From: an uncultured delta proteobacterium
Lineage (GTDB): Bacteria > Desulfobacterota > BSN033 > UBA1163
DNA: 64,000 bases
Direction: 5' to 3'
Assembly (NCBI GenBank): GCA_963827685.1
Contig: CAWHBU010000005.1
Location: forward strand, 310,994-374,993
Shown: piece after piece, positions 1 through 9,448 of the stretch
Numbering within the stretch: the stretch's first letter is position 1
How the letters are laid out: every line of letters starts with the position of its first letter
Made by a program: the position numbers and the translations under genes
The notes under the pieces: generated by a model
What the model was told of the DNA's origin: nothing
Databases searched by the model: none
What the model saw: only the letters and a program-made list of their open reading frames with translations

Positions 1-234
1 ATGATCGGTTTCTTCAGCCATATCTTCGGCCTCCTCTGTGGTTTTCTTCTCTCTATTCTTCTCATCTACGTCATCAATAAGCAATCCTTTGGATGGACCA
101 TTCAGTTCTCCATTCCGCTTTGGAGTCTTATAGAGTCCTGGTTAGTGGTGATGCTCACTTCCATCGGCGCGGGCTTCATCCCAGCCCGTCGGGCTGCAAA
201 AATGAATATGGTGGAATCGTTAAGGATGGAATAA
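1..234 (+). CDS. C-terminal end of FtsX-like ABC transporter permease (partial)
   Basis: Hydrophobic C-terminus ending INKQSFGWTI...IPARRAAKMNMVESLRME, typical of permeases found next to AttH/lipocalin genes. Confidence 0.8.
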   Translation: MIGFFSHIFGLLCGFLLSILLIYVINKQSFGWTIQFSIPLWSLIESWLVVMLTSIGAGFIPARRAAKMNMVESLRME

Positions 235-290
235 GAATAAGTTAAGAGGTAAGAGTTAAAAGGTAAGAGTTACGAGTTATGGATATGGAG
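232..290. repeat. Degenerate heptameric simple repeats (GTTAAGA/GGTAAGA/GTTACGA)
   Basis: taagaataa gttaaga ggtaaga gttaaaa ggtaaga gttacga gttatgg directly after the stop codon. Confidence 0.6.
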
Positions 291-304
291 TATGTGCTGT
301 CCTC

Positions 305-467
305 TGCCCTTCCTCAGCCGTAAAATTGGTGAGAAAGTCTGACGCCATTCCACCAAAGGACTTCAAAGAATTGCACCGAGAGATTTTGAAGGAAAGAAAA
401 CCCGCAGCATAACACAACGCTCACCGGGGGCCGGATTGATCGGCATCCGCTGGAAGCGTTGTTACCC
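305..467. repeat. Copy 1 of a ~165-bp direct repeat (non-coding unit plus attC); copy 2 at 4349-4513
   Basis: tgcccttcctcagccgtaaa...gaaggaaagaaaa(c/t)ccgcagcat...gctcaccgggggccggattgatcggcatccg occurs at both places with few substitutions. Confidence 0.9.
407..467 (-). other. attC site of the higBA cassette
   Basis: On +: GCATAAC...GTTACCC. On -: GGGTAAC-5nt-TTCCAGCG (8-bp L'' with extra C)...CGGTGAG-6nt-GTTATGC. GTTACCCCG at 461 is complementary to CGGGGTAAC at 1141. Confidence 0.85.
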
Positions 468-472
468 CGTCC

Positions 473-757
473 CTATGCCGCCTTTTTGAGAGTGACATGC
501 ATGCCAGCTCTCGTCGCAAGGGTAATAATCATTTCGAGGCTAAATCTCTCCCATTTGCCTCTGATCAAGTCTGAAACCCTGGATTGACTAACGCCGAGGA
601 TCTCCGCAGCCTTGGCCTGCGTTAGCCTCTTGGCTTTGATGAATTTCCGGAGATCGGCCATAAGATCGGCACGCATCTGAAGAATTGCGGCTTCATCCGG
701 AGAATACCCGAGGTCAATGAATACGTTTCCAGAAGATTTAACAGCAACCTCGCTCAT
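473..757 (-). CDS. higA: HigA-type XRE/HTH antitoxin
   Basis: SSGNVFIDLG N-terminus, HTH LTQAKAAEILGVSQSRVSDL, overlaps the toxin stop codon. Confidence 0.85.
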   Translation of the reverse strand: MSEVAVKSSGNVFIDLGYSPDEAAILQMRADLMADLRKFIKAKRLTQAKAAEILGVSQSRVSDLIRGKWERFSLEMIITLATRAGMHVTLKKAA

Positions 758-1074
758 AAATTACCTCCAATCTGCCTGTACCGCTGGCGAGCCAAATCAA
801 TATCATGCCGGCTCGTTTTTCGAGTCTTCTTTTGAAATGCGTGAAGCACATAAACCGCTTCGCGAAGCTTAGCAACATAGATTACTCGCCACTCGCCCAA
901 GACGTGGATACGGATTTCCTTCACGCCTGGGCCGATCACCTGCATTGGTTTCCAATCGCTTGGTTCAAGTCCGTTTTGGACCGCACGGAGTTCGAAGCCT
1001 GCGGCACGGCGAGCTTCATCGGGAAAGTTCCGAAGATCATCGAGGCTCGATCCCACGAAGTTCAACGGCTTCAT
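754..1074 (-). CDS. higB: HigB/RelE-type (Gp49-like) toxin
   Basis: MKPLNFVGSSLDDLRNFP...GVKEIRI...VYVLHAFQKKTRKT; toxin-first gene order. Confidence 0.85.
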   Translation of the reverse strand: MKPLNFVGSSLDDLRNFPDEARRAAGFELRAVQNGLEPSDWKPMQVIGPGVKEIRIHVLGEWRVIYVAKLREAVYVLHAFQKKTRKTSRHDIDLARQRYRQIGGNL

Positions 1075-1084
1075 AGTCACCAGA

Positions 1085-1114
1085 ATATTATATAAGTTTT
1101 TATATATTTAGCAA
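1085..1114 (-). promoter_or_regulatory. Cassette-internal higBA promoter with palindromic operator
   Basis: On -: TTGCTA-16nt-TATAAT just upstream of the start. Perfect TATATAA-N4-TTATATA palindrome at 1089-1106 between the hexamers. Confidence 0.7.
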
Positions 1115-1149
1115 GTCCAATGATTAAGGTCCTTATCGTGCGGGGTAAC

Positions 1150-2952
1150 GAGCCTGTAGAAAAAGTCGGTTTTTTAAAAACCGCTTCTTCTGCTGGATCA
1201 AAAATAGGAAATTATTTTCTGTCATCAAAAGTTTTTCCGATTCTTGGCGAAATGTTCGTCTTTTCATGATATTTTTCTTACCACAGTATCATATCACCTA
1301 ATCCGACTCCGTTCACGCAAGCTCCAGACCGTATCGATGCACTTTAAATAGATTGTGCACCGCACAGTAGAGTAACCACTGGGTGTTCACTTTTCGTTTC
1401 CCTCGAAGGGTAAATCGGTTCAACCCTAAGGTAGAGCAAATATTCCCAAATACAGGCTCTGCCGTTCCGAGTCTCCTGTCGTAGATGAGTCTGCCTTTTA
1501 TCGAATCTATTTTGCGCTTCATCTTCTGGGTAAACGTCTCCGGCTTCGACTCCGCACTCCCCTGAAAGAAGTACACCTGTCTTGCCTCCGTTCTGTCCGG
1601 ATGTCTCAGGCATCTCTCCCGTAGTCCGCAGATCCGACAGTCGGTCTTTCTCCCATGAAACTTGATGGCCCGCTGACCGTTGACCACCACATTCCCCCCA
1701 TTGCGATACAGGCGCTTACCCCCAGGACAGATGCAATGAGTCTTGTCTTCGCTGATCGTAAAATCCCTGTGTGGCCTGTATAAGTCGGCCACTCCGTAGT
1801 ACTCAGCCCTCTCCTTTCTGAATTGCTCTTTGTATTTGTCAACGTCCGAAAACCGCGGGTCCCGCTTCCGAAACTGCGTGTCTGCAATATAGGCATCGAT
1901 CCCTTGCCCCATGACCTCCTTCATATTCGCCTCGGTATGAAACCCACTGTCCGCTGTGAGCTTTGCTTTCTCGAAGATATCCTGTTTAATGCCGACGGCC
2001 TCGAAGTTCTCCCTCGTCCCCTCGAGCATAGGAAGAAGAAGATCATGTTCCTGCGCTGCTCCAAATGCCTCCGCATGTACAACCACCTGGTGCTTTCCGT
2101 CTACCACCGCTACCCCATCGTAACCCTGGATCACCCCGTGCGAGGTCTTCATCTTGGCGCTCTCATTGTCCGTGATGTTGCTCTTCACGGGCTTACCGCT
2201 CTTGCCAGGTTTGTCCTCGTTTTCTCGTAGCCATGCCTTTATCTTCTTTACCTTCCCCCGAAGGGTCTCCACATACTGCTCTTCTTGCTCCATCACTCCC
2301 CGGTCCGCCTCGGTAACATCCACCTCCCGATGCCGCTTGACAATCTGCCTGATCACCTTCTCCATCTTCTCTCTTTTCTTCTCCAGTTCTTTCTTCGTCC
2401 CGCTCCATTCTTTCGAGGCGTTTGAAGGCAGCTTGCAGCCATCCACTGCAAACATCTCTTTCCCGATCAGCCCCATCTCATCGCAGATCAACAGTATCTC
2501 TAGAAACAGATGGATGATCTCCTGGCCCGAGGTCGAAATGAAGTCTGAGATCGTCGTAAAATGCGGCTGCGTATCCGCCGAGAGCGCCATGAAGATAACA
2601 TTCTCTTGACAACACTGCGCTATCTTTCGGCTCGAGGTGATTCCTCGTGAGTACACATACAGGATAATCTTTAATAGGACGGCGGGATCGTATGCCGGCG
2701 CTCCCATCTCGTCGTTTCGGTACCGGCAATCAAAAATCGACAGGTCTATCTCGTTGTCAATGAGGTAATGAAGGCTATACTCAAACGTCCCGGGTAAGAT
2801 CTGTCGGTCAAAGTGGATCGGTATGAACTTTCCCTGTGAATAATCAAACTCTTTGTATCTCGCCATCCAGTCCCTCCTAAGCGGTCTCCGCTCTCTTTGC
2901 CGCTACTGATATGGCGATTTTATCATGCTTTTAAGACTTTTTCTACAGCCTC
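1150..2952 (-). mobile_element. Complete IS1182-family insertion sequence (1803 bp) inserted in an attC site
   Basis: 18-bp terminal IRs GAGCCTGTAGAAAAAGTC (1150-1167) and GACTTTTTCTACAGCCTC (2935-2952), 17/18 match. AAC on both sides (1147-1149, 2953-2955). Confidence 0.92.
1313..2866 (-). CDS. IS1182-family DDE transposase
   Basis: GAPAYDPAVLLKIILY..SSRKI (DUF772-like), FAVDGCK, TDNESAKM, ADSGF, RRLGTAEPVFG..FTLRG..HNL. Confidence 0.93.
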   Translation of the reverse strand: MARYKEFDYSQGKFIPIHFDRQILPGTFEYSLHYLIDNEIDLSIFDCRYRNDEMGAPAYDPAVLLKIILYVYSRGITSSRKIAQCCQENVIFMALSADTQPHFTTISDFISTSGQEIIHLFLEILLICDEMGLIGKEMFAVDGCKLPSNASKEWSGTKKELEKKREKMEKVIRQIVKRHREVDVTEADRGVMEQEEQYVETLRGKVKKIKAWLRENEDKPGKSGKPVKSNITDNESAKMKTSHGVIQGYDGVAVVDGKHQVVVHAEAFGAAQEHDLLLPMLEGTRENFEAVGIKQDIFEKAKLTADSGFHTEANMKEVMGQGIDAYIADTQFRKRDPRFSDVDKYKEQFRKERAEYYGVADLYRPHRDFTISEDKTHCICPGGKRLYRNGGNVVVNGQRAIKFHGRKTDCRICGLRERCLRHPDRTEARQVYFFQGSAESKPETFTQKMKRKIDSIKGRLIYDRRLGTAEPVFGNICSTLGLNRFTLRGKRKVNTQWLLYCAVHNLFKVHRYGLELA

Positions 2953-3013
2953 AACGCCAGCATAAGGGGCGCGGCGGCTTTTTGCTTTGTCCTTCTTTAG
3001 CGAATGGTTAGCT
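2953..3013 (-). other. attC site split by the IS (rest of R' at 1143-1149)
   Basis: Removing the IS gives GGGTAAC gccagcataaggggc...gtccttctttagcgaatg GTTAGCT. GTTAGCT (3007) pairs with AGCTAAC (3562) at the other end of the cassette. Confidence 0.75.
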
Positions 3014-3014
3014 G

Positions 3015-3554
3015 TCAGTCGCTCAACCACACTCTTATAAAACGCTTCGTATTATTATCCCAATAGAAAAGGGATGCCGCGCTTTCAAACCTATAGTAAA
3101 GGATGGAGGGGGTCTTTATTGTGATCTTTGACCTCGGTTCCGTTTTTCCAACGCAGTCATTCCCAACCTCTATACAGAGATACTGGTGCGTGCCTGGTGC
3201 GAGTACTTTTAACCCCATCCCTAAGTCAACATTGGGGTACTTCGGTCCCCAATCAATTACGTCCAGGGTTACCCACCTGAAACCCCCCTTGCCATCGGAC
3301 AACCATACCAAAAGGCCTTGGCCACTGAACTTTGTGCTCTTAAACAAGAATGCCTCATCTTGCACCCCGTCACCGTTGAAATCGGCGGTGGCCCAGGCCA
3401 ATTTCGTTGGTGACTTGCTCCGCTCTTGATCAGCTAATTCATTTTCAGTCGGATAGCGCCAGCCATCAGGAGGTCTGTCGGCTCCAACCGTATAATCTGG
3501 AGACCACAGGAACAGGGCGCAGCAGACTGTGAGTGATAGAATAAATCCTTTCAT
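3015..3554 (-). CDS. Cassette-encoded secreted hypothetical protein with FG-GAP-like DFNGDG motif
   Basis: Signal peptide, ADFNGDGVQDEA; ORF fills the cassette from border to border. Confidence 0.7.
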   Translation of the reverse strand: MKGFILSLTVCCALFLWSPDYTVGADRPPDGWRYPTENELADQERSKSPTKLAWATADFNGDGVQDEAFLFKSTKFSGQGLLVWLSDGKGGFRWVTLDVIDWGPKYPNVDLGMGLKVLAPGTHQYLCIEVGNDCVGKTEPRSKITIKTPSILYYRFESAASLFYWDNNTKRFIRVWLSD

Positions 3555-3568
3555 AAATGATAGCTAAC

Positions 3569-3728
3569 GAGCCTGTAGAAAAACCCCCTCACTGCGATTA
3601 AGGGATGGTTTTCTGGGGGTCTCTTGACCCCTCCTCAGCATGAGATCGTCGCATACAGAGCATCCCGAAGGGTCGTATCTTCTTCCAACTAACCGCATTC
3701 GTGCGAGATTGACTTTCTCTACAGCCTA
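3569..3728. mobile_element. 160-bp MITE with IS1182-type ends, inserted in an attC site
   Basis: GAGCCTGTAGAAAAA...GACTTTCTCTACAGCCTA, flanked by AAC (3566-3568 and 3729-3731); no transposase. Confidence 0.88.
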
Positions 3729-3787
3729 AACATCGCAGCTCCCCGGCCGCCAAGTTACTGGCGGTTGGGTGTAGCCGCAGGTAAGAA
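3729..3787 (-). other. attC site split by the MITE (degenerate R'')
   Basis: AAC atcgcagctccccggccgcca agttac tggcggttgggtgtagccgcag GTAAGAA forms a hairpin. GTAAGAA is one mismatch from the complement of TTCTAAC (4287). Confidence 0.7.
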
Positions 3788-3796
3788 GAAGTTTTT

Positions 3797-4273
3797 CTAA
3801 TCACGTTGCAGTGAGCGAAGAAATTTAAGGATATCACGAATTATTTCCTTAAACGTATACCTGTCAGTAGCGCTATCTACACATTCTTCCGCATGATTAT
3901 TTGTAATATCAGTTTCTGACAGTTCGAATTTACCTTGTTCTATTTGACTCAAAAGGTCCTTGGCTTTCTCTACATCCTTTTCGTCAACCTGAATCGCAAC
4001 AGGACCAACTATTGGGTTAAACCCGGTACCTAAGCGGCCTCCTGCAAATAAGTCCTGCAACCCTTCGCCTTTAACATAATATTTGATACCTTCAGATTCG
4101 AAAAGTGACTTGGCAAATGCAATATAAGCAGGATCGCCTGTTTCATACACAGTCACAAATCTAATAAATTCAGACTCTATTCCAGGAGGAGACTCATTAA
4201 CAAGGGCCACATTGCACGTTGAACATACAGTAATTCCCTCGATATATTCAGCACCGCAATTTGGACAAAACAC
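3797..4273 (-). CDS. Cassette-encoded zinc-ribbon plus DUF2007-like (putative signal-transducing) protein
   Basis: MFCPNCGAEY..CSTC, AKSLFESEGIKY, IQVDEKDVEKAKDLL; GTG start after AGGAG. Confidence 0.75.
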   Translation of the reverse strand: MFCPNCGAEYIEGITVCSTCNVALVNESPPGIESEFIRFVTVYETGDPAYIAFAKSLFESEGIKYYVKGEGLQDLFAGGRLGTGFNPIVGPVAIQVDEKDVEKAKDLLSQIEQGKFELSETDITNNHAEECVDSATDRYTFKEIIRDILKFLRSLQRD

Positions 4274-4293
4274 TTATATCTCCTAATTCTAAC

Positions 4294-4450
4294 GAGCCTG
4301 TAGAAAAAACCCCTCAATACGATTGAGGGATGGTTTTCGGGGGTCGGTTGCCCTTCCTCAGCCGTAAAGTTGGTGAGAAAGTCTGACGCCATTCCTCCAA
4401 AAGACTTTAAAGAATTGCACCAAGAGATTTTGAAGGAAAGAAAATCCGCA
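4294..4450. mobile_element. One-ended IS1182-derived element at a cassette junction
   Basis: Starts GAGCCTGTAGAAAAA right after TTCTAAC. First ~70 bp resemble the 3569 MITE (hairpin CCCTCAAT-ACG-ATTGAGGG). No second IR; runs into an attC. Confidence 0.75.
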
Positions 4451-4513
4451 GCATGACGCTAACGCTCACCGGGGGCCGGATTGATCGGCATCCGGTGGCG
4501 CCGCTTGTTAGCG
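4451..4513 (-). other. attC site, near-identical core to 407-467
   Basis: GCATGAC gctaacgctcaccggggg ccggattgatcggc atccggtggcgccgctt GTTAGCG. GTTAGCG nearly pairs with CGCTAAT (4894). Confidence 0.75.
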
Positions 4514-4604
4514 AATGGTTACCTATCTCCCCGTTCGCTCATTATCTTCTCTTGTCGTCCCTTTGTTCACGCAGTACGTAAATGGAGCCCTCATAGCCAT
4601 AGAG

Positions 4605-4880
4605 TTAGTGAAAGAAAGCTGTAATCACAAACATAATGGCACATAACAGAAAGTTGAGGTGTGCCAGAAGAAAGAGCTTAAACCGAGCACTTAGTTTCTC
4701 ATGGTTATTTCTTAGATGCCTATAATATCGATAGACGTTTAGAGTTCCTGCGAACAATACCATTCGGAAGTCCGGTCGAGCCTTGATTTCTCTTTGCGCA
4801 AGAATTGCCGTTATTCCAAAAAAGGCCATCGTAAATACCAGATATATTCCAATCATGAAGTCCCAAGTGAGCATATCCAA
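4605..4880 (-). CDS. Cassette-encoded small two-TM membrane protein
   Basis: Two hydrophobic segments; lies between attC sites. Confidence 0.6.
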   Translation of the reverse strand: MDMLTWDFMIGIYLVFTMAFFGITAILAQREIKARPDFRMVLFAGTLNVYRYYRHLRNNHEKLSARFKLFLLAHLNFLLCAIMFVITAFFH

Positions 4881-4893
4881 ATTTCTTATATCC

Positions 4894-4951
4894 CGCTAAT
4901 GATCTGAATCAGCGGGGCATATTACGCATCTGCCGAATTGTTTTGTCAGCC
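4894..4951 (-). other. Degenerate attC site
   Basis: CGCTAAT gatctgaatcagcgggg...atctgccgaattgtttt GTCAGCC. Both core triplets mutated. GTCAGCC nearly pairs with GGCTAAC (6368). Confidence 0.65.
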
Positions 4952-4955
4952 ACAC

Positions 4956-6353
4956 CTAAACACTTTGTTTCCTTCTTTCGCCGTGTACATAATCTGGAAT
5001 TCTACCGGTTCTTATGGCATCTTCGAGCCACATTGCCTTCTGTAACAATAGTTTGTTACCAGTCTTTTTAAAGATTTCTATAGATTGACTTACAAGTGCT
5101 AAGGCCTCATCTTTCTCTCCGAAGAATCTTATTTGGTTCGCAAGGTTATGAAGTACGTTTGCTACACCTTCTTCATCAGCAATTTGAGCGTAAATGTTCT
5201 TGGCCAGAAGAAGGCTTCTCTTGCAAAGGTCTCTTTCATACTCATATCTGTCAGAAACCTTCATCTGGCAATATGCCAGGGCACGCTGACCCGCTGCATT
5301 GCCGATTAAGAGTAGTACGCCTGCCAACATCTGAAGGTCATTACTTTTAGCTGTTAAATTAAGAGCTGCGTCAAAGGCAGAATTATACTCCTCTTGGGTA
5401 CGTCTTAAACGACCAAGAGTGCTTTGCCGTTGTGCCTCAGTCACAAAAGGCAAACCACATAGATTGGATGCCATGATGGAGAAGAACATTCTCATATCTT
5501 CATTAATATAAGCAAAAGACAAAAAGGATGCTTTTTGAGCAAGGAAGAAAGCTTTAAAACGTTGACTCCCAATCGATTCAGTTAGGGCGATGCCTGATTT
5601 ACAAAGCTCTATCATATCTGTAGGGGAGTCCTCTAAAGGATCAAACAGATCCAAGAGTCCGATCAACGCATTAAGTTGAGCCACGGTATCCTTACTTGCA
5701 TAGTAAATAGTCTTAAGCTCTTTCTTTGCATTGCCGGTGGCAAAGACCTGCCGTAATTCAATTACGCGCTTATTATCGTCACTATCACCAGCCTTTGATT
5801 CCATAAAAGGTGCAGCAAGTAGATGTTTCTGAATCGGACCCTCCTTCTTTTGCGTTTGTTTTAAATAACTCAAGATTTCGTCTAGTTTCTTATCTATACG
5901 CGTAACGTGTAGCTGTGGAAATGCTTCATATAAATGGGGATTTTTGTAAAGTTCATTGGCAAGAAATGTAGATTCCAGGTGATTTGCGGCAAACCCAAGG
6001 TCAGATCCAATCTTGCACATTTGGGCAACTACGTTGCTACTCAACTTTCTGGGAGTGATAAACGTCCACCGTTCCACTTCGTACTTGTCGGCATCTCGGA
6101 GTTTTGCTGCTTTTTGCATATCGCTCGTTATTTTCTCCAAGTAGTCCTTATCCGTCTTTTTCTCGGGCTTAATGGGGCAGTAAATGGCGAATATCGTTTT
6201 TTCTGACCGCAAATATCCGTCATTTCCCTCATCACTCCGAGTTCCGTCAATTATTTGAAAATCCTCACCATAGATACAAGTAAGAATCAAATTAGACAAT
6301 CGTGTGAATTCTTGTGGATTGGTTATCAGGGCGATTTGGTCTTCCAGATACAT
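4956..6353 (-). CDS. Cassette-encoded PD-(D/E)XK-like nuclease domain plus C-terminal TPR protein (candidate defence effector)
   Basis: N-terminal NPQEFTRL..GTRSDEGNDGY..FAIYCP..KITSDMQKA..WTFITP; C-terminal ANVLHNLAN..EALALVSQSIEIF. The ATG at 6353 lies inside the cassette border at 6374, whereas the track start 6395 is outside. Confidence 0.65.
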   Translation of the reverse strand: MYLEDQIALITNPQEFTRLSNLILTCIYGEDFQIIDGTRSDEGNDGYLRSEKTIFAIYCPIKPEKKTDKDYLEKITSDMQKAAKLRDADKYEVERWTFITPRKLSSNVVAQMCKIGSDLGFAANHLESTFLANELYKNPHLYEAFPQLHVTRIDKKLDEILSYLKQTQKKEGPIQKHLLAAPFMESKAGDSDDNKRVIELRQVFATGNAKKELKTIYYASKDTVAQLNALIGLLDLFDPLEDSPTDMIELCKSGIALTESIGSQRFKAFFLAQKASFLSFAYINEDMRMFFSIMASNLCGLPFVTEAQRQSTLGRLRRTQEEYNSAFDAALNLTAKSNDLQMLAGVLLLIGNAAGQRALAYCQMKVSDRYEYERDLCKRSLLLAKNIYAQIADEEGVANVLHNLANQIRFFGEKDEALALVSQSIEIFKKTGNKLLLQKAMWLEDAIRTGRIPDYVHGERRKQSV

Positions 6354-6367
6354 GTTAAATATTTTAT

Positions 6368-6415
6368 GGCTAACAATTAATAGACCAAGTTCCAATTTGT
6401 TTCTAATTGGCCCTT
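6368..6415 (-). other. Putative attI-like site at the head of the array
   Basis: On -: CCAATTAGAAACAAATTGGAACTTGGTCTATTAATT GTTAGCC. AT-rich, no attC hairpin upstream; no intI ORF follows. Confidence 0.45.
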
Positions 6416-6565
6416 CTACCTGTACTTTTTACCACCTTTTTATTTTGGCGTCTATAGAATTCTTGATTCTATTTCGTTTTTTCCATTACAATAGCATAAA
6501 ATTTAAAGCAACTTCTTTTGACAATTTTTATTGGGTGCCAGGAGTTTTCTTTCCGACAAATTGTT

Positions 6566-6628
6566 TCCCCTCACCCCATCCCTCTCCCCTGGGGGGAGAG
6601 GGGAAGGTGACAGAGGAGGGGTGAGGGG
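6566..6628. repeat. REP-like palindrome (CCCCTCACCC..CCCTCTCCCC..GGGGAGAGGG family)
   Basis: Nested inverted repeats; related copies near 18953, 19682 and 55258. Confidence 0.7.
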
Positions 6629-6635
6629 ATGGAGG

Positions 6636-7784
6636 ATGAGATTGCTTCGCCTTCGGCTCGCAATGACCGCCTGCTTCGTAATTCTGCTGACCCTTGTTTC
6701 ATTCACTCCTGCGCTTCTGAGCCAAGACTTCAAGCGGGCTCTTCCGGGAAGAACCTTTTCTTTTCCCCAGGACCATTTCTCTCATCGTGAATTCAAAACC
6801 GAATGGTGGTACTATTCCGGCCATCTCCAATCCCTTGGCGACGATGGAAAATCCTTTGGCTATCAGCTCACCTTTTTCAGAACGGGTTTAACAAGAGAGA
6901 CAAAACATCAAAAGTCAAAATGGTCCATTCAAGACCTTTATTTCGCGCATCTTGCCATCACGGATGAATCGAAAAAGAAGTTTGAATATCGTGAAAAGAT
7001 CAGCCGTGGAAGCTTGGGAGAGGCAGGGGCTTCCCCTTACAAGACAGGTGAAAAGACCTTTCGAATCTGGATTGAGGACTGGTCCGTTGAAGGAAAGGGT
7101 CCTGGAATGCAAAATCACCTTCTCAAAGCTGGAGATAAAGTTTTTGGGATTGAACTGATGCTTACGCCGGAAAAAAATCCAGTCATCCACGGGCAAAATG
7201 GGATCAGCCAGAAAGCCGAAGGAGAGGGATATGCCTCGCATTATTATTCCATCCCCCGCTTAAGAACGGAAGGGAGAATCTTTTTACAAAACAAAGAAAT
7301 TTCTGTTCAAGGAATCGGCTGGATGGACCATGAATTTGGCTCCTCTCAACTCCGAGAATACCAGGTTGGATGGGATTGGTTCAGCATTCAATTGGATAAG
7401 GGGATAGAGTTGATGCTTTATCAGATCCGACAAAGCGATGGGAAAATAGATCCCTATTCCAGCGGGAGCATCATCTTTCCTGACGGAACATACCAGCATT
7501 TATTTGGGAAGGAATTCCAGATTGAAGTCCTGGATCACTGGAAAAGCTCAAAGAGCGGGGCCGCCTATCCCTCCAAATGGAGGGTGAAGGTCCCCGGTCG
7601 TCAGATTGATCTGATCATCTCCCCAACCGTTAAAGATCAAGAATTGATTACCAAGGAATCCACCCGGGTGATCTATTGGGAGGGAAGCGTTAAGGTGGAT
7701 GGGAAGTATCAGGGCGGTCCTATCAAGGGGATGGGTTATGTGGAATTAACCGGATATGCCGAGCCTCTTTCCGGAAAAATCTGA
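6636..7784 (+). CDS. Secreted AttH/CrtC-like lipocalin-domain protein (carotenoid 1,2-hydratase family)
   Basis: FSFPQDHFSH..TEWWYYSGHL, GWMDHEFGS, GWDWFSIQL, YWEG..GYVELTGY. Confidence 0.9.
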   Translation: MRLLRLRLAMTACFVILLTLVSFTPALLSQDFKRALPGRTFSFPQDHFSHREFKTEWWYYSGHLQSLGDDGKSFGYQLTFFRTGLTRETKHQKSKWSIQDLYFAHLAITDESKKKFEYREKISRGSLGEAGASPYKTGEKTFRIWIEDWSVEGKGPGMQNHLLKAGDKVFGIELMLTPEKNPVIHGQNGISQKAEGEGYASHYYSIPRLRTEGRIFLQNKEISVQGIGWMDHEFGSSQLREYQVGWDWFSIQLDKGIELMLYQIRQSDGKIDPYSSGSIIFPDGTYQHLFGKEFQIEVLDHWKSSKSGAAYPSKWRVKVPGRQIDLIISPTVKDQELITKESTRVIYWEGSVKVDGKYQGGPIKGMGYVELTGYAEPLSGKI

Positions 7785-7948
7785 CCCAATCGCAGGTCAT
7801 TGACCCTCTCGGGGACTTTGTCCTAAAGATTTCGAAATAAAGATCCACTTCTTCATTATTATCATCTCCTTTCATCGGACTTGAAAATAGCGCATATTAG
7901 GTCCTTAGGACATATTACTCTACCACTCGCTGAGTATCGAAAAAGGAG

Positions 7949-8476
7949 TCAGCTACCGCTGTCAGGTCTATCAGTCCCCAATGAGCGGACAGCTCTGACG
8001 AATCCTTTGGCGCGCTTCTTTGGAGTAGGGTATACCCTCGAGACCTCTTTCCCTTGAGAGGGACTATAGTTGAACGGGAGCAAGACAGTGGGGTCGGATG
8101 ACCAATAGAGATCAAAATAGGCATAGACATCGCGTGAATGTCTGCGCATCATCAATTCGACAACCACTGCGGTGTCTCGTTCGTCAGGGTTGGGCAGACG
8201 CCAATCCGTATAGCCACCCACTCGTAGCGTCATACAGTACTTTTGCGCTTCCTCGAATGTGACCTCCTTTCCATTATCGCCTTTCTGCCACATTATTTTC
8301 CGCCTTGTGTCCGTAACCGTGCCATCTCCGTTGTCCACAAACCTTTTCTCTGCGACAAGAACGGGCGCCTTGCGCGGGGGGGGAAGGTGTTCGGCTGACT
8401 CAGCCGTGTGCGACCGGCTAAGAAGTAGTAGTACAGAGGCTATGAACATAAGCGAGAATCGCAACACATTTTGCAT
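7949..8476 (-). CDS. DUF1566 (Lcl C-terminal-like) secreted protein
   Basis: RFVDNGDGTVTDT..MWQK..A..YC..GGYTDWRLP..YWSS..VRAVR. Confidence 0.85.
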   Translation of the reverse strand: MQNVLRFSLMFIASVLLLLSRSHTAESAEHLPPPRKAPVLVAEKRFVDNGDGTVTDTRRKIMWQKGDNGKEVTFEEAQKYCMTLRVGGYTDWRLPNPDERDTAVVVELMMRRHSRDVYAYFDLYWSSDPTVLLPFNYSPSQGKEVSRVYPTPKKRAKGFVRAVRSLGTDRPDSGS

Positions 8477-8557
8477 CTTAGTGCCCCCTTCTTGGCTGCA
8501 GGAAACCCTCCCGGGCCACCAGCCCGACCTCACCGCCCCCACAAATAACTGTGCAGC

Positions 8558-9448
8558 CTAACCGCTGTGAGATCCCCGTGAGCCTTCGGGAAGAAGCTTG
8601 GCGATACCCCAGGCTACCGCGTAGACCACGCCGAGGAGGACAACATCCGTCGGGCCGACGGGCAAATCCCATTGATATGCAATCCAGAAACCGAGGAAAG
8701 CAACCGCGCCACCGACCAGTGAGGCCAGTGCCGTGAACTGGCGCATATTGTGCGCAAACAAGTGTGCCGTCAGTGCGGGGATCAGCAAAAATCCAAACGC
8801 GATCAGCGGACCGACGCTGAGCACCGCCATCGAGACGGTCAGGCCGATCATCAGATAGAGCAGCACATCCCAGAAAACAACATTCTTGCCAAGTATAATG
8901 GCCATCTCCCGGTCAAACGAGACCAGGAGCAACTCCTTGTAAAACAGTCCCAGCGAGACGAGGACGAGCGCAAGCGTTCCTGCCGTCAACGCAAGATCGA
9001 AATTGGAGATGGTGATAACCTCTCCTTTCAGCATATCGAGCCAGCCGATCTCGCCGTATGGATTTTTTGCCAGCAACAATATGCCCAATGCGGCAGCCAC
9101 GACATACGCAGTGCCGAGTCGACCTTCAGGCTGGCCGTGCCCGCGCCGCTCCAGAAACGCCAGCACCAGGATTGCGGTCAGCGAAAATGTGATCGAGCCG
9201 ACAAAGGCGAGGGCATGCGCACTGTGTGAGCCGTGGTCGGTCAGACGAAATCCCAGCCACAAGGGAAGCGAGAGCGCGACAGCGACGCCTGTCGAGGAGA
9301 TCTGCGGTAGTGCTACGCCCATAAACACCAGCCGGCGCATCACGAGAAACACACCGACGAGCGGGCAAGCGAAGCCGACGAGCACGCTGGTATAAACCGA
9401 GTTACGCAGGAGAAAATCGGGAGAGAGAATCTGACGTAACGCTTCCAT
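8558..9448 (-). CDS. Mn/Zn-type metal ABC transporter permease
   Basis: LVGVFLVMRRLVFMG, YKELLLVSFDREMA, DLPVGP. Confidence 0.9.
   Translation of the reverse strand: MEALRQILSPDFLLRNSVYTSVLVGFACPLVGVFLVMRRLVFMGVALPQISSTGVAVALSLPLWLGFRLTDHGSHSAHALAFVGSITFSLTAILVLAFLERRGHGQPEGRLGTAYVVAAALGILLLAKNPYGEIGWLDMLKGEVITISNFDLALTAGTLALVLVSLGLFYKELLLVSFDREMAIILGKNVVFWDVLLYLMIGLTVSMAVLSVGPLIAFGFLLIPALTAHLFAHNMRQFTALASLVGGAVAFLGFWIAYQWDLPVGPTDVVLLGVVYAVAWGIAKLLPEGSRGSHSG

Follow-up and report, generated by a model that had tools for sequence, protein, structure and literature searches.

Why do mobile elements in an array of integron gene cassettes appear to begin exactly at the triplet at which the integron integrase exchanges strands? 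The question is raised by a 64-kb stretch of contig CAWHBU010000005.1 from an uncultured delta proteobacterium (hereafter the window, meaning the whole stretch), in which an insertion sequence (IS) and two shorter, non-coding relatives, MITEs (miniature inverted-repeat transposable elements, one of them truncated), lie among cassettes and their attC recombination sites. We propose that the IS belongs to a clade whose insertions are specific for both site and orientation and fall at the GTT in the R' core of attC, and we give this proposal a probability of about 0.88. The first-pass annotation of this DNA had suggested a site-specific subgroup of the IS1182 family that, together with non-autonomous MITEs, parasitises cassette arrays; the junctions, the fixed orientation, the support for the clade and the ends shared by the MITEs all speak for it.

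Element junctions and the nature of their targets

Positions are given in the coordinates of the window; the top, cassette-coding strand of the array is the minus strand, and the attC models described below match the plus strand as the bottom strand. The 15-mer GAGCCTGTAGAAAAA, allowing at most two mismatches, matches the 64 kb four times, at 1150, 3569 and 4294 on the plus strand and at 2938-2952 on the minus strand; shuffled sequences give an expectation of 0.13 matches, and none of 100 shuffles reached four. The first-pass annotation reported three ends in one orientation, each immediately after an AAC, and no such ends elsewhere in the 64 kb. We found the same: the borders are GGGTAAC ahead of 1150, AGCTAAC ahead of 3569 and TTCTAAC ahead of 4294, and the fourth match is the inverted end of the IS itself. 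The full-length IS (1150-2952) and a 160-bp MITE (3569-3728, with the right end GACTTTCTCTACAGCCTA) also terminate, as had been described, in an inverted repeat followed by a second AAC, at 2953-2955 and 3729-3731, respectively.

In the source genome, BLAST detected five full IS copies (98.6-100% identity), of which the four outside the window (98.6-98.9%) are on contigs C3, C9, C1 and C8, as well as derivatives with internal deletions (about 300-590 bp) and solo ends. There are five complete MITEs, the window copy and four others, which are 158-160 bp long and non-coding, have ends with zero to three mismatches to the 15-mer (three in the right end of the window copy) and share with the IS the ends, the target and the orientation relative to attC. 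AAC flanks four of the five on both sides, and the fifth (C10b) has AAC and AAA. Over the whole genome, AAC precedes 17 of 18 left ends, extended to TAAC in 14 of these 17, and follows 15 of 18 right ends; the copy on C1 is flanked by AAT left and right, and in two elements a left AAC is paired with a right AAA. These counts include C9:26362, C2:594503 and C5:314721, which a stricter filter had missed, and leave out eight two-mismatch matches regarded as chance because the sequence continues unlike the IS or the MITE (C1:29354, C2:772783, C2:954608, C2:1064343, C2:1154107, C4:111182, C5:48482 and C5:238412).

The flanks are shared by other organisms. At 22 related loci from 10 other genomes, with transposases 65-91% identical to that of the window, GTT precedes all 18 right ends and follows all 21 left ends that were located; the hosts are uncultured delta proteobacteria/Thermodesulfobacteriota, Nitrospirae/Thermodesulfovibrionia, Desulfobacteraceae and one unclassified bacterium. 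Copies at 60-71% and 44-45% identity have GTT at 8/8 right and 10/10 left ends. The ends of copies at 44-71% identity were located by end-pattern searches, as a generic inverted-repeat finder mis-called several. All foreign data taken together (about 20 genomes of Thermodesulfobacteriota, Nitrospirota and Pseudoalteromonas; 44-91% identity), GTT is found at 27 of 27 right and 34 of 34 left ends. The clade is spread over at least three phyla.

When the junctions of the source genome and of the 22 related loci are pooled, the top strand upstream of the elements has C at position -4 in 32 of 36 cases, followed by G (33/36), T (36/36) and T (36/36) and then by the IS; downstream of the IS, the order is G (38/39), T, T, A (33/39) and G (26/39). 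The L' box, 8-16 nt upstream, has conserved positions as well (28/36 with T at -14, 29/36 with A at -12).

On this evidence the flanking 3 bp are a true target duplication, as the first-pass annotation had assumed for the GTT, because AAT flanks the C1 copy left and right, AAC occurs only once at paralogous empty sites, and sister lineages (see below) have GCT/GCT and TGC/TGC. The flanks of the C1 copy and of the sisters rule out that AAC is part of the IS and that nothing is duplicated. The empty sites, which correspond to the 60-nt left flanks of full copies, are C8:53372-53431, C8:55440-55499 and C4:282572-282616, and in all three cases the homology reaches one single AAC and ends there. 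Since homology stops in this way at cassette boundaries, the insertions are placed at such a boundary. A separate observation concerns a sequence of about 60 nt ending in ...GGGGGAGAGGATAAC, a repeated 5' module that stands at cassette starts at least six times (C8:53372-53431, C8:61256-61310, C8:36664-36708, C8:64288-64319, C3:137036-137081 and C3:134800-134859).

To describe the targets, two covariance models were built from sites turned so that the left end of the element comes before the site. R1 was made from nine uninterrupted candidate sites of the source genome (alignment A2), with a structure drawn by hand, and 35 R1 hits, seven of them adjoining an IS, served to train R2. In A2, 79.9% of the cells are paired, versus 26-41% with the partners slid by one to three columns; nine of the 21 pairs have changed on both sides (compensatory), and none of 500 shuffles attained any of five measures. 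The consensus, gccuAAC...GUUaggc, is an imperfect palindrome of the RYYYAAC...GTTRRRY type with paired R and L boxes. This attC form is present in most targets, weak in two targets of the window and absent at two to four sites of the source genome. On its 3' arm, the consensus of the modelled strand also shows one bulged G. In attC bottom strands an extrahelical base, typically G, is found on the 3' arm, and we take the bulged G of the model to occupy this position.

RNAalifold predicted no structure from A2, and an Rfam scan of window positions 1-9000 gave no attC family and nothing relevant. A MAFFT alignment of nine mixed-length sites (A1) was dropped for A2, its 5' boxes being misaligned; energy-ranked folding of in-silico empty sites gave over-long structures and was not used as evidence; and early attC scans by pattern plus folding, too strict or noisy for a census, were used only to choose seeds.

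R1, which is blind to them, matches 5 of the 18 right-end flanks of the source genome, at or a few bases from the element end, and abuts 9 of 18 foreign right ends, in seven of these nine cases extending 4-5 nt into the IS end. With default filters, R2 abuts eight of the 18 own right ends; with the filters off, four more weak hits (E 0.058-0.2) and two marginal ones (E 4.2 and 8.9) appeared, and four ends had none. According to the first-pass annotation, the idea would fail if most other copies lay away from attC. An attC-model hit abuts 12 of the 18 right ends in the source genome (through eight clear and four weak hits) and 9 of the 18 in foreign genomes. Most targets are attC-like, and the two in the window are decayed versions. 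Elements are present at 6 of the 35 genome-wide R2 hits (E <= 0.1); the genome count of R2 sites is at least 35, with 150 of 667 first-look candidates scored.

The strand was read from the hits as well. At 23 foreign loci with the transposase on the plus strand, 27 of 28 R1 hits are on the minus strand, including those to uninterrupted neighbours in the same arrays. One Pseudoalteromonas locus (L063) is a complete integron (intI 459.7 bits, cut-off 265), in which intI is on the minus strand and the cassette open reading frames (ORFs) are on the plus strand, divergent from it, with model hits on the minus strand directly after the ORFs; one IS remnant lies about 8 kb from intI, within the co-oriented array. 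From the hit strands, this layout and the bulged G, it follows that the modelled strand is the attC bottom strand and that the transposase is on the cassette-coding strand. The frame open from +80 to +320 past the left end is on the transposase strand in 28 of 39 cases and ambiguous in five, many left-end sites are followed within 15-60 nt by a ribosome-binding site and start codon, and in every case the cassettes and the transposase share one direction. The R' core, and not R'', is the place of insertion. The target named by the first-pass annotation, the GTT of R' on the cassette-coding strand, agrees with the own and foreign flanks, the in-register attC-model hits and the downstream ORFs.

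The transposase, its relatives and their phylogeny

The 18-nt inverted repeats of the IS (1150-1167 and 2935-2952) are complementary at 17 of 18 positions (94%), and its only ORF encodes 517 amino acids on the minus strand (2866->1313). In Pfam, the protein matches DDE_Tnp_1_6 (PF13751, 2.3e-22), DUF772 (PF05598, 3e-14) and DDE_Tnp_1 (PF01609, 5.2e-10). The top NCBIfam profile is NF033551, IS1182 family transposase, over positions 34-486 of 488, with 255 bits, which is below the curated cut-off of 270; the runner-up, an IS5 profile, scored 35 bits. Plasmid-borne relatives labelled IS1182 are 24-29% identical to the window transposase. Members of the IS1182 family have a single ORF, terminal inverted repeats and a length of about 1.3-2 kb. 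The 1803-bp IS with its 18-bp repeats fits this layout, as does a protein with DUF772 in the N-terminal and DDE_Tnp_1_6 in the C-terminal part. By its best profile and its layout, the window IS, with a DDE transposase, is probably a divergent IS1182-type element, and the family assignment of the first-pass annotation stands as IS1182-like.

A hairpin resembling a bidirectional terminator, CGGTTTTT..AAAAACCG, is found just within the left repeat, at 1167-1183; its T-run is part of the repeat. The right repeat is overlapped by a promoter-like site, TAGAAA-17-TAAAAT (TG present; 2945->2917, window 2917-2945). These features suggest polarity on downstream cassettes and a transposase promoter contained in the IS end. 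In one contig of run X4, with low support (side 22), positions 1167 and 2934 are joined, so that the inverted repeats directly follow each other; this could be a minimal element of two repeats or an artefact of the assembly of a palindrome.

Relatives of the transposase are abundant: more than 120 protein clusters with 81-94% identity were found in metagenomes, and 30 of 301 genomes of the phylum of the window have matches. The closest relative in the plasmid collection is from Pseudoalteromonas piscicida (NZ_CP074588.1), with 44-45% identity and the same terminal decamer. It has GTT at 1/1 right and 3/3 left ends and a long attC-like sequence upstream; at each of the three left ends, GTTA is followed by a ribosome-binding site and then by an ORF. 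At another locus (L048, 2486-2950), the left end of an IS fragment is followed by GTT and at once by the right end of a MITE; this arrangement indicates that a regenerated GTT can receive a further element in tandem.

Sister IS lineages at 43-45% identity, in genomes G293 (loci L075 and L096-L098), G012 (L078) and G284 (L083), have the near-identical ends GAGCCTGTCGAAAAAG and GAGACTGTCGAAAAAG. In G293, the flanks are ...CTGCT before and GCTAT... after the IS in four of four copies, and in G012 and G284, TGC is duplicated. By eye, there is no attC in the flanks of three of the four G293 copies; the fourth is about 20 nt downstream of an attC-like end.

A maximum likelihood tree of 20 transposases groups every element that has these ends in a single clade with a long stem (support 100/100), apart from ordinary IS1182 relatives (26-31% identity). 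Within the clade, one subclade (99/99) comprises eleven GTT elements, and its sister (94/85) consists of two GTT elements and the GCT and TGC lineages. The tree was midpoint-rooted only, and the Pseudoalteromonas L050 protein was left out, since its gene is broken and no BLAST hit was obtained among ORFs of 250 aa or more. The attC targeting may be ancestral to the clade, followed by retargeting to GCT and TGC; the alternative, with the tree rooted at its midpoint, would be two origins.

The cassette array of the window

The features of the array are as follows.

407-467, minus: uninterrupted attC of a HigBA-like cassette (R2 45.3 bits, E 1.1e-11; R1 seed at 412-464)
473-1080, minus: toxin-antitoxin cassette, with an HTH_37 antitoxin-like ORF (473-757) and a Gp49/HigB-like ORF (754-1080), from Pfam
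1143-1149, minus: remaining part of the R' core (minus strand GTTACCC), with one duplicated AAC copy at 1147-1149
1150-2952, minus: full-length IS, 1803 bp; left repeat 1150-1167, right repeat 2935-2952, transposase 2866->1313
2953-2955, minus: second copy of the duplicated AAC (top strand GTT), from the sequence and the logic of a 3-bp duplication
2948-3013, minus: degenerate attC of the ORF179 cassette (R2 11.0 bits, E 0.2, exact register)
3015-3554, minus: cassette ORF179, 179 aa, without a Pfam family (ORF list, Pfam)
3562-3568, minus: R' remainder AGCTAAC (top GTTAGCT), 14 nt upstream of the ORF179 start, with a duplication copy at 3566-3568
3569-3728, minus: 160-bp non-coding MITE, with ends as in the IS (left 15/15, right 16/18)
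3724-3787, minus: very degenerate attC of the DUF2007 cassette (R2 6.6 bits, E 4.2), with a duplication copy AAC at 3729-3731
3797-4273, minus: cassette ORF158, 158 aa, DUF2007 (Pfam)
4287-4293, minus: R' remainder TTCTAAC (top GTTAGAA); next on the top strand come AGGAG and the start codon of ORF158, GTG
4294-4360 (end approximate), minus: truncated MITE of which the left part remains (55-71 nt, 87-91% identical to the MITE)
4349-4513, minus: 109-bp non-coding segment and strong attC (4457-4513, R2 54.7 bits), duplicate of 305-467
4894-4951, minus: possible last, decayed attC of the array (R2 9.6 bits, E 0.53; weak)

We found no intI near the array, which is flanked by ordinary genes, and the only intI-like sequence in the source genome is a C-terminal fragment on another contig (C3:782919-783275, profile positions 197-315, 191 bits, below the cut-off). 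The array, from about 407 to 4951, is therefore a cluster of attC sites lacking an integron integrase (CALIN), with minus-strand cassettes, which was entered three times by one element family. Two attC-model hits lie 17-18 kb from the intI fragment (C3:800196-800256 and C3:801133-801190).

The claim that the attC hairpin resumes after the second AAC is upheld only weakly inside the window. With its filters off, R2 places hits behind the IS and the MITE in the register and on the strand that were expected, but with 11.0 bits (E 0.2) and 6.6 bits (E 4.2) neither is significant alone. In the hit at 2948-3013, the IS terminus occupies the first 4-5 model positions, and in that at 3724-3787, a hairpin, CCGCCA..TGGCGG, is visible. 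On the other side of the elements, the top strand reads GTTAGCT-N7-ATG from the left end of the MITE into ORF179 and GTTAGAATTAGGAG-N6-GTG from the truncated MITE into ORF158. The toxin-antitoxin cassette downstream of the IS has a promoter-like site of its own at 1114-1087 in a promoter scan.

The element at 4294 falls short of a complete MITE: only about 55-70 nt match the MITE, and from 4349 the sequence is a duplicate of 305-453, so that the right end and the attC that the element had entered are missing. The copies at 4349-4513 and 305-467 are 94-97% identical. In one contig from public data (run X2, depth 3.1), 415 runs straight into 4461; therefore, a population variant exists without the 4 kb between them, that is, without the toxin-antitoxin cassette, the IS, ORF179, the MITE, ORF158 and the MITE stub. 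The joint falls in 34 identical bases starting at the AAC of attC, which fits both excision by an integrase and homologous recombination. A further contig joint with low support connects 414 to 4318 (side 28). Elsewhere, G/C-rich palindromes, CCCCTCACCC...GGGGAGAGGG, occur at 6563-6631 and at many places in the genome (for example, C1:305645-305752, C3:322895-322982 and C7:93641-93729); they have the look of a family of REP-like repeats that has nothing to do with attC.

Alternatives, known systems and a possible mechanism

Several points weigh against attC-specific insertion. In the window, the attCs adjoining the IS and the MITE have the low scores given above, against 45.3 and 54.7 bits for the uninterrupted sites at 407-467 and 4457-4513. 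In the source genome, there is no attC-model hit at the right ends C10:30214, C10:31100, C1:64531 and C2:594503, and the sites on C1 and at C2:594503 are unlike attC by eye; off-target insertion thus occurs. Six of the 39 downstream frames are on the strand opposite to the transposase. Both models are home-made, not the attC model of IntegronFinder, and their identity as attC comes from features of the sites, the array context and one complete integron; R2 is partly circular, as 7 of its 35 training sites abut an IS, although R1 is not. Among the public contigs laid on 300-4600, we found no polymorphism between empty and filled states of the window sites; these contigs are short, and the lack of a bridging one is uninformative either way. 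Finally, the insertion preference is read from sequence alone, and the mechanism of recognition is one that we infer.

A simpler view would be that a short word of about C-GTT-AG is all that is recognised, that attC merely contains it, and that structure and integron context are irrelevant. The junction consensus described above is indeed strong at C, GTT, A and G, the sister targets are equally sharp without a hairpin by eye (GCT in 4/4 for G293, TGC in G012 and G284), and two to four own copies lie at sites not resembling attC. However, a 6-mer of the CGTTAG type is expected thousands of times in 5.2 Mb, whereas the 12 own and 9 foreign right ends abut an attC-model hit in or near the expected register, and additional positions of the L' box (-14 and -12) are conserved. 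We therefore regard recognition of the word alone as unlikely. Nevertheless, the GCT and TGC sisters show that this clade can read sequence sharply by itself, and thus either structure or sequence may carry the greater weight. Still less can be said for placement of the IS and the MITEs by the integron integrase instead of their own transposase, as cassettes or parts of cassettes and hence at G/TT. It would account for the coincidence of the junction with the crossover triplet of the integrase, and insertion of cassettes by integrases at GTT outside att sites is described in a preprint (bioRxiv 10.1101/2022.09.11.507474). However, the elements, whose termini are 18-bp inverted repeats, contain no attC; from copy to copy, the attC upstream and the cassette downstream change, so that no constant cassette travels with the IS; the C1 copy is flanked by AAT/AAT; and the sisters duplicate 3 bp at GCT and TGC sites, with no attC by eye in the printed flanks. 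Furthermore, the own copies are 98.6-98.9% identical though the genome has only the C-terminal intI fragment. Placement by the integrase is thus highly improbable.

The established attC specialists are IS1111-attC elements and group IIC-attC introns (PMC3001079, PMC11187229), both of which are described near the 5' end of attC and in antisense. IS1111-attC elements (ISPa21, ISPst6 and ISKpn4, of the IS110/IS1111 family) form a phylogenetic subgroup with one fixed orientation at attC (PMC3001079, PMC11187229), and their DEDD transposase is guided by a seekRNA, with subterminal repeats (PMC11187229). The present clade is likewise a phylogenetic subgroup of attC-specific ISs in fixed orientation, but it has a DDE transposase, terminal 18-bp inverted repeats, a 3-bp duplication and MITE derivatives, and it is found at the 3' (R') crossover triplet in sense orientation. 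No DEDD (IS110-type) transposase was detected in the window IS; Pfam and NCBIfam gave only DDE_Tnp_1, IS1182 and IS5 profiles. Group IIC-attC introns such as S.ma.I2 are monophyletic, dedicated to attC and inserted after palindromes; as retroelements, they have both a ribozyme and a reverse transcriptase, and they enter the bottom strand, between a gene and its attC (PMC3001079). They share with the clade an attC-dedicated lineage and differ in being retroelements that lie opposite to cassette transcription. For a group II intron, the Rfam scan of window positions 1-9000 gave one sub-threshold hit (455-646, 19.6 bits; gathering score 49), and the Pfam scan of the window proteins found no reverse transcriptase domain. 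In halophiles, group IIB introns are linked to integrons (PMC7923331).

Within the IS1182 family, IS1272 and TnSha1 of staphylococci target a DNA hairpin or inverted repeat; for IS1272, no primary-sequence specificity, insertion in both orientations, no duplication and deletion of part or all of the hairpin are described (PMC4923244, PMC5678879). The clade resembles IS1272 in the family of its best profile match and in a hairpin target, but it leaves the hairpin intact, duplicates 3 bp and has one orientation and a strong sequence consensus. Members of the IS1202 family (ISAjo2-like) insert at pdif/dif sites in one orientation and at a fixed distance, 5 bp from the XerC arm (PMC10132070). They are comparable as ISs with terminal inverted repeats in a single orientation at the site of a tyrosine recombinase, and differ in the IS family, in the site (XerC/D dif) and in not lying inside the crossover triplet.

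The first-pass annotation knew of no attC targeting by IS1182 transposases. In our full-text literature search, which did not reach ISfinder and TnPedia, no link of IS1182/IS5-type elements or of these ends to attC targeting was found, although hairpin targeting as such is already documented for IS1272 (PMC4923244, PMC5678879). It may be asked whether the pattern, though real, has already been described, for example in an ISfinder entry or in a subscription journal. The clade is abundant in metagenomes and present in complete Pseudoalteromonas records; IS5-type transposases make up 49% of the transposases in cassette arrays of plant microbiomes in the account of PMC11089894, where these counts come with no claim of targeting; and Siguier et al. 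2015 is quoted (PMC4923244, PMC5678879) to the effect that some IS1182 members target palindromes. On the other hand, the passages on attC targeters in PMC3001079, PMC11187229 and PMC11089894 name only IS1111-attC elements and group II introns, and that in PMC7923331 only group II introns. An earlier description is thus rather doubtful, and the attC-targeting clade is quite probably undescribed so far. The IS5-family counts of PMC11089894 may come partly from elements like the window IS.

How might such insertion work? The target would be the GTT of the R' core, the triplet of strand exchange by the integron integrase, of which the 3 bp are duplicated. From general DDE chemistry, the points attacked by the two 3'-OH ends would be C^GTT (top strand) and GCCT^AAC (bottom strand), and the staggered cuts flanking GTT would then be 1-2 nt from the integrase cleavage point in the same triplet. 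By analogy with IS1272, recognition may involve the attC hairpin or cruciform together with the sequence L'-spacer-CGTT-AG. The upstream attC would keep a usable R', as the right end of the IS starts with G-AGGC and the junction, GTT-gAGGC, is near the common GTTAGGC, and the element would ride with the next cassette when the integrase moves that cassette. A G/C difference at position 4 between right and left repeats is seen in many copies, in the MITEs, in several genomes and in the Pseudoalteromonas relatives at 44-45% identity; some copies at 44-71% identity have C at position 4 of both ends. The difference fits an upstream attC that stays functional and an element that travels with the next cassette. 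A more speculative extension, which we hold to be possible but doubtful, is a parasite of integrons with dual mobility: the transposase would read the folded attC, the ends would have evolved to rebuild R', and an IS or MITE with the next cassette would form a composite cassette. If so, the upstream cassette would stay mobile while the integrase excises and spreads the composite cassette, and such spread could explain the distribution across phyla.

A DDE clade that inserts at the crossover triplet in sense, together with its MITEs, would be a third and mechanistically independent solution to the use of attC. It bears on the decay of arrays into CALINs, as 2.0 kb of the 4.5-kb array of the window are IS or MITE, and on the expression of cassettes, because the IS has a terminator-like hairpin at its distal end. 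For annotation, such transposases will be counted as cassette proteins in surveys of integrons. The association also hints at how IS elements could hitch rides between phyla. Furthermore, the transposase would be an enzyme made of protein only, whose structured DNA target is very sharp and which has natural variants for other triplets; if the clade descends from an attC specialist, its sublineages were later retargeted to GCT and TGC.

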